Source: Thermoanaerobaculia bacterium (lineage in GTDB: Bacteria; Acidobacteriota; Thermoanaerobaculia; UBA5066). Taken from it: DNA of 64,000 nucleotides. Position 1 is the first letter of the stretch; the number at the start of each line of letters is the position of its first letter. Below, piece after piece: positions 23,206-26,298 of the stretch. The notes under the pieces are model-generated. The model made no database searches and had not been told where the DNA came from. It saw nothing but the letters and a program-made list of their open reading frames with translations. Position numbers and translations under genes: made by a program. The DNA lies in the NCBI GenBank assembly GCA_963816185.1, contig CAWFJJ010000024.1, forward strand, positions 6,635 to 70,634, read 5' to 3'.

Positions 23206-23918
23206 TAGCGTCCAACGACCTTAACGACTTTGGCGGTCTCCGCTTCGACGGCCTGGAGGTGTTCCGTGACTTCGTCCCAGCGGTGATCGAGCATGGAGCC
23301 CGCGGCGAGGCCGAAGAGCAGCTGGAACCGGTCGACGGCGGCGGCTGTGTCGGCGTTGAGTGTCGCGCCTTGCGTCGCCAGTCTGCGCGTTCATTTCCAT
23401 GGAACTCTTCCAAGCGGACGCCGCACGTTTGGCATCCACGGTGTAGCGAGCCTGCAGGTCGCTGAAGGTTTCCTTGTCGGCTGCGGCGACGTTCGGGACA
23501 TCGGGCGGCTGCATGGCGAAAGGCGGGTCGGTGTTAATCGGCGCAGGCACCGGATCGAAGACGAGAGGCTCCGGCTGGCCGCCGGCCCAGGCGCAGGGAA
23601 ACGCCGAGATCCGGCCGAAATGCGTCCCAGCGACGCGCGCATTTGCGGATCGCGCGTGTAGGTATTCATGGTGGCGACGTACGCCGCCATGCTGCGGACC
23701 ATCTGGCGATTGGCCTCGTAGTCGCCGGGAGTGAGTGCGGAGCAATACGCTCCCGCGCCGCCCAGATACGTTTCGAAGCGGCCCAGATCGTCGGAGGTAA
23801 CTCTGTTGGGCTGCTGGCCCAGCATGCCGCCGAGGTTGCCTCGCCACAAAGATCCGGTCCCAAACTGCGCCGGGAAACGCGACACGTCGCCAAAGCAAAA
23901 GACAAGTGCGAGGCGCAT
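23206..23918 (-). CDS. Hypothetical protein (probable signal peptide); frameshifted
   Basis: MRLALVFCFGDVSRF...YLGGAGAYCSALTPGDYEANRQMVRSMAAYVATMNTYTRDPQMRASLGRISA in ORF 23391-24179. Continuation in ORF 23221-23928, and a natural-looking C-terminus ...AVDRFQLLFGLAAGSMLDHRWDEVTEHLQAVEAETAKVVKVVGR* in a third frame. No family recognised. Confidence 0.3.
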
Positions 23919-23934
23919 CACTTCGCATGGCTCG

Positions 23935-24910
23935 TTACTTGCGAACGACATCTCCGACCACAGGAGCGGGGCCGCCCGACGCGGCGAACGTTCCAGTGGA
24001 GATGCGATCGCGAACGTTGGTGATGGTGAGCGTGCCAATCGGCGTAGTCTGCACGTCCAGCACTTCACCCGTCTTGGGATCCTTGATTTCCTTGCCCTTG
24101 TGATAGATGGTGAAGGTCTGGCCTTTGGCGAGACCCGCTGCGCTTCCGGCATTGATCGTGATGTTGGCGCCGTCCACATCCGCGACGATGGCGTCCAGGT
24201 CGTCTGTCGCGGCTGCCCGCGCTGCCCGTTGTAGGTCCTGCGGCGATCTGTTGAGAGAGCTTGTTCACGGCGTCCATGGTGGCCTCACCGATAATCGTTT
24301 CGGCAAAGTTCGAGCTGGTCATGTTGAACCCTCCGCCAGCTCCTATGCCGCCGGCGAACATCGCCGCGCCGAAACCCTTGCTGGTGCGTTTGGATTCGCC
24401 GCGAGCCTCGCCGGTGCCCACGATCTCACTGGTCTCCTCATCGACCAAGCGGTAGTCGATGACGACGACAGCCTTGGCCTCGCCTTTAGATCCGCCGATG
24501 ACGCCACCTGCGCCGCCGACGATCGCGCCCACGCCCGCGCTGGTCTTGCGGTCGTCACGCCCGAACACGACGATATCGCCCATCAGGGTGAGATCCGCGC
24601 CGCGAATCTGGCCAACGCGCGCGCCGGTGCCTTGCTTCACGCGATTGCTGGCGTTGAAATCCTGCTCCTTTGTGACGTTTGCGATCTTGCGGCGTTCCAC
24701 CACGGTAAACTTGCCGTCCTGCGTGACGCGCGTAGTCAGCATGGCAGCGATGCCAGTGCCGATGTTCTGCTGCGTGCCAAAGATGGCCTGCACGCCGGTC
24801 ATTACGGTGGAATAATCGAAGGGCTCGATAATAAGCGCCTTCTTGGTCTGCGCGGAAGCCAGCGTGGCAGATGCGGCCAACAGGCTTACCAGGAGTTTTC
24901 GGTTCGTCAT
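23935..24910 (-). CDS. CsgG-family (COG1462) periplasmic/outer-membrane lipoprotein-like protein with extra C-terminal beta domain, paralog 1; one frameshift
   Basis: Signal peptide MTNRKLLVSLLAASATLASAQ. Core: ALIIEPFDYS...RVTQDGKFTVVERRKIANVTKEQDFNASNRVKQGTGARVGQIRGADLTLMGDIVVFGRDD. The C-terminal domain is in ORF 23935-24177 (ITINAGSAAGLAKGQTFTIYHKGKEIKDPKTGEVLDVQTTPIGTLTITNV). Confidence 0.5.
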
Positions 24911-24930
24911 ATTTGCCTCTCTGTTTGGAT

Positions 24931-26298
24931 TTACTGGGCTATCTTCTTACGCGCCATGAAGCCGACCTTCGCGGGCGATCCCGTATAAGTTCCGGTCGCG
25001 ACTTTATCACGCACGCTGGTGATGGTCATCTCGCCGGTTTTCTCGGTCACCACATCCAGCGTTTCCTTGGTTACCGGATCCTTGACTTCCCGGACGATGT
25101 TGAGGACCTCGAATATCTCGCCGACGTTGACGCCGTCGTTCGAGCCTACGTTAAGCACAAGGGTCTTTCCGGAGACGTCGGCTACGCGGCCTTCCACTTC
25201 GCGGACCGCCTTCTTCATATTGGCGGTCTGCTCCAGGAGAATATCCGCGAGTTTGTTGACGCAATCCTGAGTAGCCTCGCCGATGATGGTCTGGGCGAAA
25301 TTGGAGCTGGTCATATCGACCTGAACGCCGGCGACGCCCTTTCCGAGCACTCCGCCGATCGCGCCGAGAGCGTTGCCCTTGCGGACGGATTCGCCTTTGG
25401 CCTCTCCCGTGGCGATGATTTCGGAAGTCTCGGCGTCGATCAGCCGGTAATCGATGACGACTACAGCCTTGTCCTCATTCTTGCTGGAGGCGATTCCGCC
25501 GATCACGCCGCCGATCAGGCCGCCGCCCTTGACGCTCTTCTTTTTGTCATCCCGGCCGAAGACTACAATGTCGCCGGAGAGCATGGCGTCCGCGCCAGAG
25601 ATCTGGCCGACGCGCGCGCCGGTGCCTTGCTTCACCCGGTTGCTCGCGTTAAAGTCCTGCTCTTTGGTGATCGTCGCAATCTTGGCGCGCTCCACGATCA
25701 CCACCTTGTTGGCTTGAGCCAGCCGCGTGACCAGCATGGCGCGGATGCCTTTCCCGATGTCCTGTTGCGTGTTGAACACGGACTGCACCGCGGTCTTCAC
25801 CGTGGAATAGTCGAATTCGTCGACGATCACGCGTTTCTTCTCAGCTTGCGTGGTCGCGGCCGAGGGAGCCGGGGCGGGGGCAGCCGCCGCTACCGGTTCA
25901 GGAGCGGGAGCCGGTGCGGGAGTTGCCGCCGCGACTGGCGCTGGAGCAGGCGCCGCCGGAGCCGCGGCGGCGGCCGGGGCGCTGGCCGGATCGAGCATCA
26001 CATTGATGATGTTCTCCGACACGCCGGCGTTCTTTAGTTTCACCAGGTCGGCAGTTGTGAGGTTGGCCGGCTTGTTGTCCCTCTTCAGGGTTCGGATGAT
26101 CAGGCTTTCGGATAATCCGGCCTTGACCGATTCAATGACCGAATCGACCGGCGATGCGGCCGCTTTCGCGGGAGCGGCTTTCGTCGCCGCTTTGGGAGCC
26201 GCTTTAGGGGCGGCCGCGGGAGCCGGAGTCTGGCCCAGGCCATACCCACCACAAAGCTCACCAATACAACTAGACCAACCACGTGAACTTGAATTTCA
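24931..26298 (-). CDS. CsgG-family protein paralog 2 with N-terminal TM anchor, Ala/Pro-rich linker and C-terminal beta domain; frameshift near 26050-26100
   Basis: ORF 24931-26043 has RVIVDEFDYSTVKTAV...ANKVVIVERAKIATITKEQDFNASNRVKQGTGARVGQISGADAMLSGDIVVFGRDD and the C-terminus LVLNVGSNDGVNVGEIFEVLNIVREVKDPVTKETLDVVTEKTGEMTITSV. Upstream, ATG 26298 (MKFKFTWLV) gives a TM helix, then an AP-rich linker and ...TADLVKLKNAGVSENIIN in other frames. Confidence 0.5.

Follow-up and report, generated by a model that had tools for sequence, protein, structure and literature searches.

Introduction

[quoted passage not shown] Its signal peptide carries a lipobox Cys and the protein is targeted to the outer membrane, where it is nonameric: each subunit has two transmembrane β-hairpins, which in the assembly form a 36-strand barrel, and the pore is lined by a constriction loop of Tyr, Asn and Phe. 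Escherichia coli CsgG that is not lipidated reportedly remains a soluble pre-pore. CsgG exports CsgA; HfaB, the holdfast anchor of Caulobacter, is a CsgG-family protein outside curli that is co-encoded with partner proteins and exports HfaA and HfaD. For most CsgG-family proteins we know of neither a link to curli nor a role. A different kind of ring protein also enters the comparison: TsaP, of the type IVa pilus, which combines an N-terminal LysM peptidoglycan-binding domain with FlgT_C-like domains.

Here we describe an acidobacterial locus that defines a large coherent subfamily of CsgG-like proteins, in which the lipid anchor has been dropped, a ring-building barrel has been added and partners are conserved, with a kinase/sigma factor pair in relatives. 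The CsgG family itself is already known; its lipid-free, barrel-bearing variant has never been studied. If the ring predicted for these proteins is a pore, it would imply that CsgG-type insertion can take a lipid-independent route and that pores of this kind can have a new geometry; a ring without a pore would instead provide an evolutionary link of CsgG to FlgT/TsaP-type periplasmic rings. The envelopes of Acidobacteria have received little study, and either outcome would give them a defined, testable envelope complex.

A conserved unit of three genes

The window (the whole 64-kb stretch of DNA that we analysed) contains three co-directional, tightly spaced minus-strand genes spanning positions 23205-26299, as delineated by open reading frames and three-frame translation. 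A long CsgG-family paralog of ~450 aa (24931-26299) is followed after ~20 nt by a short paralog of ~325 aa (23935-24910) and, after a further ~16 nt, by a gene for an exported all-helical protein (23205-23918), which is ~235 aa here and 250 aa in L001, a near-identical syntenic locus of a related long-read MAG. All features described below likewise lie on the minus strand. The best explanation of 23205-26299 is a three-gene operon of Sec-exported envelope proteins from a Bryobacterales-type acidobacterium.

To place the locus among its relatives we used a genome scan seeded with a 15-sequence subset, a 63-sequence alignment being too diverse as a seed, which yielded 80 related Bryobacterales/Terriglobia loci. 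The long-then-short tandem order recurs in 58 of the 80, the helical protein gene lies 3′ of the CsgG-like genes in 59, and the short paralog is missing from 22. Comparison of the neighbourhoods shows that the three genes are kept together irrespective of what flanks them; this is a conserved three-gene unit of soil Acidobacteria. A sequence-only reading of this DNA had already recognized tandem CsgG-family paralogs on the minus strand and had raised the concern that they might be an assembly duplication artefact. The first point is borne out by profile matches far above cut-off (see below), and the second can be dismissed: the paralogs are only 55% identical (across 298 aa) and their order is conserved across loci, so the pair is an old duplication and no artefact of assembly. 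That reading had also reported no csgA, csgB, csgE or csgF homologs nearby, and this holds: no curli families occur in the 10 kb that flank L001 on each side, no curli genes are found among the conserved neighbours of the 80 loci and no CsgE- or CsgF-like genes lie near the unit. In having two tandem paralogs and no curli genes alongside, the locus differs from that of CsgG.

A secreted RidA-like gene upstream is syntenic in the closest relatives only and was placed outside the unit. Upstream of the long paralog there is a sigma-70-like promoter match at 26396-26425 (TTGACA, an 18-nt spacer and CATACT; 10 of 12 positions), which is a consensus match only, such matches being no commoner here than in shuffled sequence. 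An Rfam search of 22900-26800 gave no match, and the 64-kb window contains no tRNAs.

Both paralogs belong to the CsgG family and lack a lipid anchor

The Pfam CsgG profile (PF03783, cut-off 20.8 bits) matches the short paralog at 93 bits and the long paralog at 94.8 bits (both at E about 1e-26), with coverage of HMM positions 4-200 and 4-206 of 210. A profile built from the family matches the solved CsgG chains in the PDB at E 8e-11, and this alignment includes the TM1 stretch; the profile was needed, as a phmmer search of PDB sequences with the full protein returned low-complexity Ala/Pro matches only. The possibility that the core might instead belong to an LpoB-like or TolB-N-like fold was checked and the scores argue for CsgG: LpoB reaches about 24 bits, and FlgT_M 17.7 and 15.3 bits against its cut-off of 31.2. 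More generally, the same α/β fold occurs in small outer-membrane lipoproteins (PelC, LptE, PqiC/XCC0632, LpoB, GNA1162, CT253, TolB N-domain); these have neither of the inserts described below nor a C-terminal barrel, and their similarity to the paralogs in sequence is marginal. In the long paralog, the CsgG-like α/β core occupies 25204-25839 within an AF2 model of overall pLDDT 81, and as in CsgG it is followed by a long C-terminal helix. Comparison of this model with known folds retrieved both CsgG and FlgT, with FlgT as the best match; PDB entry 4uv2 in this comparison is consistent with the soluble pre-pore reported for non-lipidated CsgG.

Orthologs of the long paralog are ~450 aa in length and 96% identical. 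Its N-terminus (26230-26299) is a type I signal peptide that contains no Cys and whose c-region is AXA-like. In the frames of the window it reads MKFKFTWLV / GLVVLVSFVVGMAWA / GQTPAP, and in intact orthologs MKLKSFMFGLVVLAGFAIGVGLA|QTPAP; what had been taken for an N-terminal transmembrane anchor on this paralog is thus a cleavable signal peptide. The short paralog has the signal peptide MTNRKLLVSLLAASATLASA|Q. Checking for lipoboxes, which the sequence-only reading had proposed, revealed no lipobox Cys in either paralog or in intact orthologs, and the lipobox is absent from 59 of 63 family representatives as well. Taken at the level of sequence, these results show each paralog to be a member of the CsgG family without the canonical lipoprotein anchor. 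The subfamily is large: a search for representatives of the subfamily returned 163 clusters (50% identity, E below 1e-30), many of which match over core and barrel together. NCBI names the orthologs 'CsgG/HfaB family', and like HfaB they would be CsgG-family proteins that act outside curli systems with co-encoded partners; no HfaA- or HfaD-like genes are present here.

A FlgT_C-type barrel and a tethered four-helix domain

Both paralogs extend beyond the CsgG-like core. The short paralog consists of signal peptide, core and a C-terminal β-barrel (23938-24204; core and barrel are read in different frames in the window), and in the long paralog the signal peptide is followed by an Ala/Pro/Lys-rich stretch, a four-helix N-domain, an Ala/Pro linker, the core and the barrel (24934-25203). 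The extra C-terminal β domain of the earlier reading is real, and AF2 models it in the long paralog as a barrel at residues 367-449 with pLDDT above 90; contrary to that reading, however, it can be classified, as FlgT_C/TsaP type. Pfam FlgT_C (PF16538, cut-off 27) matches the short paralog at 28.6 bits and the long paralog, below the cut-off, at 17.2 bits, and in the family profile the barrel matches TsaP at E 2.6e-12. In the fold comparison, core and barrel together resemble the M and C domains of FlgT.

The region of the long paralog that had been described as short and amphipathic is instead a confidently folded four-helix domain of ~55 aa (25987-26148), with AF2 helices at residues 47-99 and pLDDT about 95. 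It comprises two helix-hairpin repeats, VKAGLSESLIIRTL and LKNAGVSENIINVM. Neither Pfam nor PDB sequences contain a relative of it (best E 0.015, across a 26-residue stretch), and a database search with a profile of the domain retrieved nothing beyond fragments of these proteins themselves. A resemblance to DotG repeats (E 0.28) was not significant.

These additions set the paralogs apart from CsgG, which has neither the barrel nor the tethered N-domain of the long form, and bring them closer to two periplasmic ring proteins. FlgT of the Vibrio flagellar H-ring (PDB 3w1e, 8z5n) is the best structural match, over the α/β M-like domain and the C barrel, and is likewise periplasmic, non-lipidated and ring-forming; its C domain contacts the P ring (10.64898/2025.12.04.692373). 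TsaP, of the secretin-associated ring of the type IVa pilus (PDB 3jc8, 6ve2), is the closest relative of the barrel by sequence profile. The paralogs could form, or decorate, a pore-less ring or scaffold in the periplasm around another envelope structure, or could simply tether envelope layers, a reading that we regard as possible and yet doubtful. The closeness of the C-domain to TsaP and the missing lipid anchor favour such a ring, and the long Ala/Pro tethers with their N-domain suggest a spacer or tether. On the other hand, the core is much nearer in sequence to CsgG (93-95 bits) than to FlgT_M or LpoB (15-25 bits), FlgT_N is missing, and Pfam detects no LysM. TsaP also has two barrels where each paralog has one, and its N-terminal part is unlike theirs. 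Neither flagellar nor type IV pilus genes appear in the annotated or clustered neighbourhoods.

Two glycine-rich inserts at putative hairpin positions

Within the core lies a pair of Gly-rich hydrophobic inserts. When the profile is aligned with PDB chains, insert 1 of the long paralog (KKKSVKGGGLIGGVIGGIASSKNED, 25471-25545) falls on TM1 of CsgG and is of about equal length; its length and its Gly positions are kept across loci. Insert 2 (VRKGNALGAIGGVLGKGVAGVQVDMT, 25309-25386) has a conserved 26 aa with fixed Gly positions and lies, again at about equal length, at what would be the position of hairpin TM2, as judged from the CsgG sequence. Ortholog comparison identified the equivalents in the short paralog. 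The TM1 equivalent (RKTSAGVGAIVGGAGGVIGGSKGEA, 24476-24550) is 25 aa long throughout 46 distinct orthologs, where Gly at positions 8, 13, 15 and 19 is nearly invariant, and the TM2 equivalent (KRTSKGFGAAMFAGGIGAGGGFNMT, 24317-24391), also 25 aa in 45 distinct orthologs, shows an alternation of Gly and hydrophobic residues. Inserts 1 and 2 have charged flanks. The core exceeds the FlgT_M profile by ~50 residues (210 versus 158 positions), and this extra length fits two inserts that are missing in the non-pore relatives, FlgT among them.

The inserts differ from the CsgG hairpins, which are amphipathic and aromatic: they are rich in Gly and Ala and lack an aromatic girdle, and those of the long paralog follow a period-4 GGxxGG pattern rather than a clean β alternation. 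The AF2 monomer models both as low-confidence loops, with low pLDDT for insert 1 of the long paralog and values below 50-68 for insert 2. The segment equivalent to the constriction loop (STVKTAVQSVFNTQQDIG) is equal in length to that of CsgG, although its residues cannot be reliably aligned and AF2 models it as a helix (residues 163-173). For a ring without a pore, in which the inserts would be flexible loops or shallow membrane-dipping anchors, the atypical composition and the failure to be modelled as hairpins are favourable, while the retention of both positions and lengths as in CsgG (for TM2, at its presumed position) argues against it.

We tentatively propose that the products of the operon form a ring or pore of the CsgG type in the outer membrane, without lipidation, together with a collar in the periplasm and a partner protein that docks to it. 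The paralogs would assemble into a CsgG-type ring in the outer membrane, as homo- or mixed oligomers; the two 25-aa Gly-rich inserts would enter the membrane, stand in for the lipid anchor and probably line the pore; the C-terminal barrels would form a collar below the ring in the periplasm; and the N-domain on its long Ala/Pro tethers may extend toward the cell wall or the inner membrane. A hetero-oligomer cannot be obligatory, since 22 loci have no short paralog; a hetero-oligomeric channel and a role other than secretion may each be possible. We counted the CsgG family and fold matches, export without lipidation, the conservation of the inserts, the TsaP/FlgT-type C-domain and the conservation of the operon in favour of a ring or pore. 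Counted against it were the lack of a lipobox together with the reported solubility of non-lipidated CsgG, the atypical composition and pattern of the inserts with their AF2 loops, the helical constriction segment, and the fact that the best structural match, FlgT, is a ring protein without a pore.

The helical protein is more probably a partner than a substrate

The third gene encodes a protein with 103 homologs, none of which has a name or a relevant Pfam domain. The protein itself has no match in Pfam, and a fold search of the PDB likewise gave none (best E 0.37). The AF2 model is all-α (pLDDT 78), there is an invariant Cys pair, and the C-terminus forms a three-helix domain (23208-23481, helices at residues 159-248). 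By hhalign, relatives share this domain in two further proteins, at the C-terminus of a transmembrane kinase (98.3% probability, E 2.6e-14) and in a small secreted protein (95.8% probability, E 8e-9).

By analogy with CsgG and HfaB, the paralogs might form a type VIII-like secretion channel, with the helical protein or another unfolded protein as its substrate. We consider this improbable. Three observations are compatible with a secreted substrate: membership of the CsgG family, an exported protein that is tightly co-encoded (59 of the 80 loci), and Gly/Tyr-rich low-complexity segments in distant versions of the helical protein. Against it, the prediction for the helical protein is a folded bundle, its Cys pair is invariant and it has no repeat or amyloid-like features; CsgE- and CsgF-like genes are missing nearby; and the three-helix domain recurs on the periplasmic side of a kinase of the inner membrane, which places its site of action in the periplasm. 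The folded structure, the Cys pair and the kinase homology together favour a periplasmic partner over an unfolded substrate of the CsgG type. Of the two roles that had been suggested for the downstream secreted protein, partner is therefore supported by its conservation in the unit and unfolded substrate is disfavoured. In the ring or pore that we propose, the helical protein would dock in the periplasm through its C-terminal three-helix domain.

A kinase and an ECF sigma factor adjoin the unit in relatives

The unit is larger in relatives, where genes for an ECF sigma factor, a transmembrane Ser/Thr kinase and a small secreted protein of three helices are added. Pfam and NCBIfam identify the sigma factor (PF07638/TIGR02999) and the Hanks-type kinase; of the 80 loci, about 24 have the kinase beside the unit and 19 the sigma factor. 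The periplasmic tip of the kinase and the C-terminal domain of the helical protein are the homologous parts. Because this three-helix domain caps a kinase that adjoins an ECF sigma factor, the arrangement suggests that envelope signalling would read the state of the ring in these relatives. The whole 64-kb window contains no kinase or sigma factor of this type, which counts against the signalling part, and the window would then represent a reduced version without the pair.

Direct phosphorylation of ECF sigma factors associated with such kinases is documented (PMC13147305, PMC8999054). The module of the relatives resembles the Ser/Thr-kinase-regulated ECF systems (ECF43-type, such as PknS/EcfK and PknT/EcfP) in being flanked by such a sigma factor and a Hanks-type kinase, and the locus in the window differs from ECF43-type systems in lacking the pair; a literature search returned no paper tying CsgG-like proteins to kinase-regulated ECF sigma factors. 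A more far-reaching reading, to which we give little weight, is a so far undescribed trans-envelope sensing and conduit system with the CsgG-like ring as its outer-membrane end. A non-lipidated and possibly hetero-oligomeric pore ring would be docked by three-helix-domain proteins, the kinase would take the place of the soluble partners at the ring, or compete with them for it, and would report the state of the ring to the ECF sigma factor by phosphorylation, and the window would hold a signalling-free derivative. For the ring and its docking partner we also counted the folded helical protein with its invariant Cys pair, the kinase-tip homology, the identification of kinase and ECF sigma factor and the documented phosphorylation.

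Frameshifts in the window copy

Single-base frameshifts affect all three genes in the window and the flanking mutS. Five fall within the unit: two break the long paralog near its 5′ end (~26273-26276 and ~26232-26235), leaving 24931-26043 as an intact open reading frame; one extra base relative to L001, near 24205-24211, splits the short paralog into two frames at a junction that is in-frame in orthologs; and two lie in the helical protein gene (~23602-23612 and ~23381-23383). Taken alone, five frameshifts in three genes would be compatible with a decaying pseudogene cluster, an explanation that we judge very improbable and have set aside in favour of genome-wide sequence errors. The flanking housekeeping genes are equally frameshifted, with mutS and anmK fused or split, and L001 has frameshifts at other positions; amino-acid conservation is high throughout all frames. 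As judged by comparison with the Illumina-based, short-read MAG orthologs of the three genes, which are intact, the frameshifts in the window are sequence (assembly) errors.

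Three co-directional genes and their broken frames

Three co-directional minus-strand genes, separated by gaps of ~20 and ~16 nt, occupy positions 23205-26299 of the window: a long CsgG-family paralog (24931-26299), a short paralog (23935-24910), and a third gene encoding an exported helical protein (23205-23918). Single-base indels spread each gene over two or three frames, with two frame breaks in the first 70 nt of the long paralog, one near 24205-24211 in the short paralog, and two in the third gene. Such damage might suggest a pseudogene cluster, a reading that we consider very improbable: because the neighbouring mutS and anmK are hit to the same degree, the indels of the closest syntenic locus (L001, 85% identical, from a long-read MAG) lie at other positions, and orthologs from short-read MAGs have intact frames, the frameshifts reflect sequence errors and not decay.

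Frameshifts occur throughout the window in the pattern typical of an unpolished long-read MAG, and many of the related loci are of the same assembly type ('MFD' isolates). mutS and anmK (18652-23160) appear as one artefactual 1502-aa ORF across several frames, and Fer2/MoCoBD oxidoreductase genes at ~27.6-30.5 kb are also split. Near 43 kb, G+C rises from ~0.59 to ~0.68-0.71 and stays high to the window end (~43000-64000); a genomic island, altered gene content or chimeric joining could account for this step. The 64-kb window contains no tRNA gene. L001 has an additional 149-aa gene (13149-13598, minus strand) that separates mutS from the helical protein gene and is missing from the window.

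An anciently diverged pair of CsgG-family proteins

The two paralogs score 93 and 94.8 bits against Pfam CsgG (cut-off 20.8), covering nearly the full model, with LpoB (~24 bits) and FlgT_M (15-18 bits, under its cut-off) as remote second-best matches; the CsgG assignment made in the sequence-only reading thus holds against its TolB and LpoB alternatives. A profile of 63 diverse relatives matches solved CsgG chains (E 8e-11) in an alignment that spans the first CsgG transmembrane hairpin. The nearest homologs, at 83-96% identity, belong to MAGs of Bryobacteraceae and Terriglobia and bear the NCBI name 'CsgG/HfaB family protein', and the precomputed L001 annotation already shows CsgG and a weak FlgT_C match. 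Because standard profiles detect the family and its domain combination, and because the subfamily is large (163 clusters at 50% identity in a representative search, E below 1e-30), this is not a new kind of protein.

An assembly duplication had been feared, but the paralogs are genuinely two genes, sharing 55% identity across 298 residues and following one another, long then short, in 58 of 80 related loci. Even in distant loci, the gene in second place resembles the window's short paralog more closely (54-64% identity) than its long one. These comparisons show an old duplication and a conserved gene order. A mixed oligomer cannot be obligatory, since the short form is absent from 22 of the 80 loci; in four of those 22 the third gene directly follows the long form. 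The Bryobacter sp. MAG JALHNI01 carries two separate copies of the long, short and helical protein genes (L064 and L082), and therefore the unit as a whole can be duplicated.

Loss of the lipid anchor and gain of flanking domains

The short paralog begins with the signal peptide MTNRKLLVSLLAASATLASA, cleaved before QTKK, and intact long-form orthologs begin with MKLKSFMFGLVVLAGFAIGVGLA, cleaved before QTPAP. On inspection, each proves to be a standard cleavable signal peptide that has no Cys, so the 'TM anchor' earlier ascribed to the long paralog is a signal peptide, and the search for lipoboxes proposed with it yields none. A lipobox is likewise absent from 59 of 63 family representatives. 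In contrast to CsgG, then, these proteins have no lipid anchor.

The extra C-terminal beta domain noted earlier is real, and it can now be identified as FlgT_C type. That of the short paralog scores 28.6 bits against Pfam FlgT_C (cut-off 27), the family profile matches the FlgT_C-like domains of TsaP (E 2.6e-12) and FlgT (E 1e-3), and residues 367-449 of the long paralog form a confident beta-barrel in AF2. FlgT is periplasmic and non-lipidated and has N, M and C domains; 26 copies assemble into a sub-ring within the Vibrio H ring, where FlgT-C contacts the P ring (10.64898/2025.12.04.692373).

The mature long paralog starts with an Ala/Pro/Lys-rich stretch, followed by a four-helix domain and an Ala/Pro linker of ~50 residues. 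The domain (25987-26148, minus strand; residues 45-100 of the related protein P0005) comprises ~55 residues in two repeats (pLDDT ~95 in AF2), each with the motif h-x-x-L-x-x-A-G-(V/L)-S-E-x-x-I-x-x-(L/M). Searches of Pfam and PDB sequences returned no relatives, and DotG/IcmE repeats gave a weak, non-significant echo (E 0.28).

Glycine-rich inserts at the hairpin positions

In the alignment of the family profile with CsgG, a 25-residue insert 1 falls on TM1; insert 2 (25-26 residues) lies at what we take to be the TM2 position. To our knowledge, both are missing from the structures of non-pore relatives, and the Pfam CsgG model (210 positions) exceeds FlgT_M (158) by the size of the two inserts. 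Their lengths are near-fixed among orthologs, exactly 25 for each in the short form (46 and 45 distinct sequences). Arg/Lys opens each of them, and the closing residues are Lys/Asp/Glu for insert 1 and a conserved Asp/Asn-Met-Thr for insert 2. In between, near-invariant Gly at set positions alternates with Ala/Val/Ile/Phe/Met, in parts with period 2 (G-F-G-A-G-F in short-form insert 2) and in long-form insert 1 with a glycine-zipper-like period of 4 (GGG-LI-GG-VI-GG-IA). The AF2 monomer renders both inserts as low-confidence loops and has a helix where CsgG has its constriction loop.

The best evidence for CsgG-like membrane engagement by both paralogs comes from the inserts; the chief evidence for differences in detail is their composition, together with the helix. 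We favour, tentatively, a CsgG-type outer-membrane ring, in which the inserts would enter the membrane, replace the lipid anchor and probably line a pore, the barrels would make up a collar in the periplasm, the tethered N-domain would extend towards the wall or inner membrane, and the helical protein would dock in the periplasm. The main rival, a FlgT/TsaP-like ring or tether with no pore, accords with the barrel and the missing anchor, and would make the inserts mobile surface loops or shallow membrane anchors; we hold it to be somewhat less likely than the reading above.

A subset of long-form relatives (P0226, P0231, P0238, P0240, P0261; L043, L048, L051, L052, L055, L063, L066) carries a CxxC pair (e.g. 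CKLC, CRWC, CTAC) midway along insert 1, a hint that a disulfide may staple the turn at the segment tip.

A helical partner and a larger module in relatives

The third gene product (~235-250 residues) has no Pfam match, and its 103 homologs are all unnamed, none with a relevant Pfam domain. AF2 predicts an all-helical protein (pLDDT 78) of two bundles and a Pro-rich linker, for which a PDB fold search found nothing matching (best E 0.37). Two Cys are invariant in its alignment and may form a disulfide. Immediately after the CsgG-like genes comes a homolog in 44 of the 80 loci, and a divergent ~306-residue form in 15 more, even where flanking genes are wholly different. The three genes thus constitute a conserved operon whose products are exported envelope proteins.

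When the neighbour genes of the 80 loci were clustered, a larger unit emerged, of which the window has a reduced version. An ECF sigma factor lies immediately upstream in 19 loci (PF07638, 175 bits; TIGR02999, 199 bits), in 25 a gene for a secreted ~115-residue protein separates the short paralog from the helical protein gene, and in ~24 the module adjoins a gene for a 600-840-residue protein with a zinc ribbon, a Hanks-type Ser/Thr kinase domain, a single transmembrane helix and a periplasmic part. The kinase is downstream at L040, L047, L048, L054 and L055 and upstream at L031, L056, L058, L059, L070, L071 and L075; other loci with kinase or sigma factor fall among L003-L082. The 64-kb window contains none of the three. 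A homologous three-helix domain links the last ~90 residues of the kinase to the small secreted protein and to the helical protein C-terminus: in hhalign, the helical protein C-terminus matches that of the kinase with 98.3% probability (E 2.6e-14) and the small protein with 95.8% (E 8e-9), and a third comparison among these domains gives 98.8% (E 1e-16).

Of the two roles proposed earlier for the downstream protein, that of partner is upheld by its conservation, but a CsgG-type substrate is unlikely, because the protein is predicted to be folded, has the Cys pair, and shares a domain that, in an inner-membrane kinase, acts in the periplasm. A secretion channel dedicated to it, which its constant place beside the CsgG-like genes might suggest, is accordingly improbable.

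For ECF sigma factors that are associated with Ser/Thr kinases, activation through direct phosphorylation is known (PMC13147305, PMC8999054, PMC7826278); our literature search found no paper connecting such pairs with CsgG-like proteins. In the literature searched, three features appear undescribed as a combination: a lost lipid anchor together with inserts kept at the hairpin positions, a long/short tandem that is conserved along with its own helical partner, and a three-helix domain shared with a kinase beside an ECF sigma factor.

Divergent from the long paralog lies a plus-strand gene (26544-27560) whose secreted product of 338 aa resembles RidA/YjgF (Ribonuc_L-PSP) in two stretches; we rejected it as a unit member, as it is syntenic in the closest relatives only (10 of 82 loci). 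The ~306-residue helical protein, as encoded at L061, L064, L069, L072, L074, L078, L081 and L082, has Gly/Tyr-rich low-complexity stretches (e.g. GGGFGYGYGYGAGMY) between its two helical parts.
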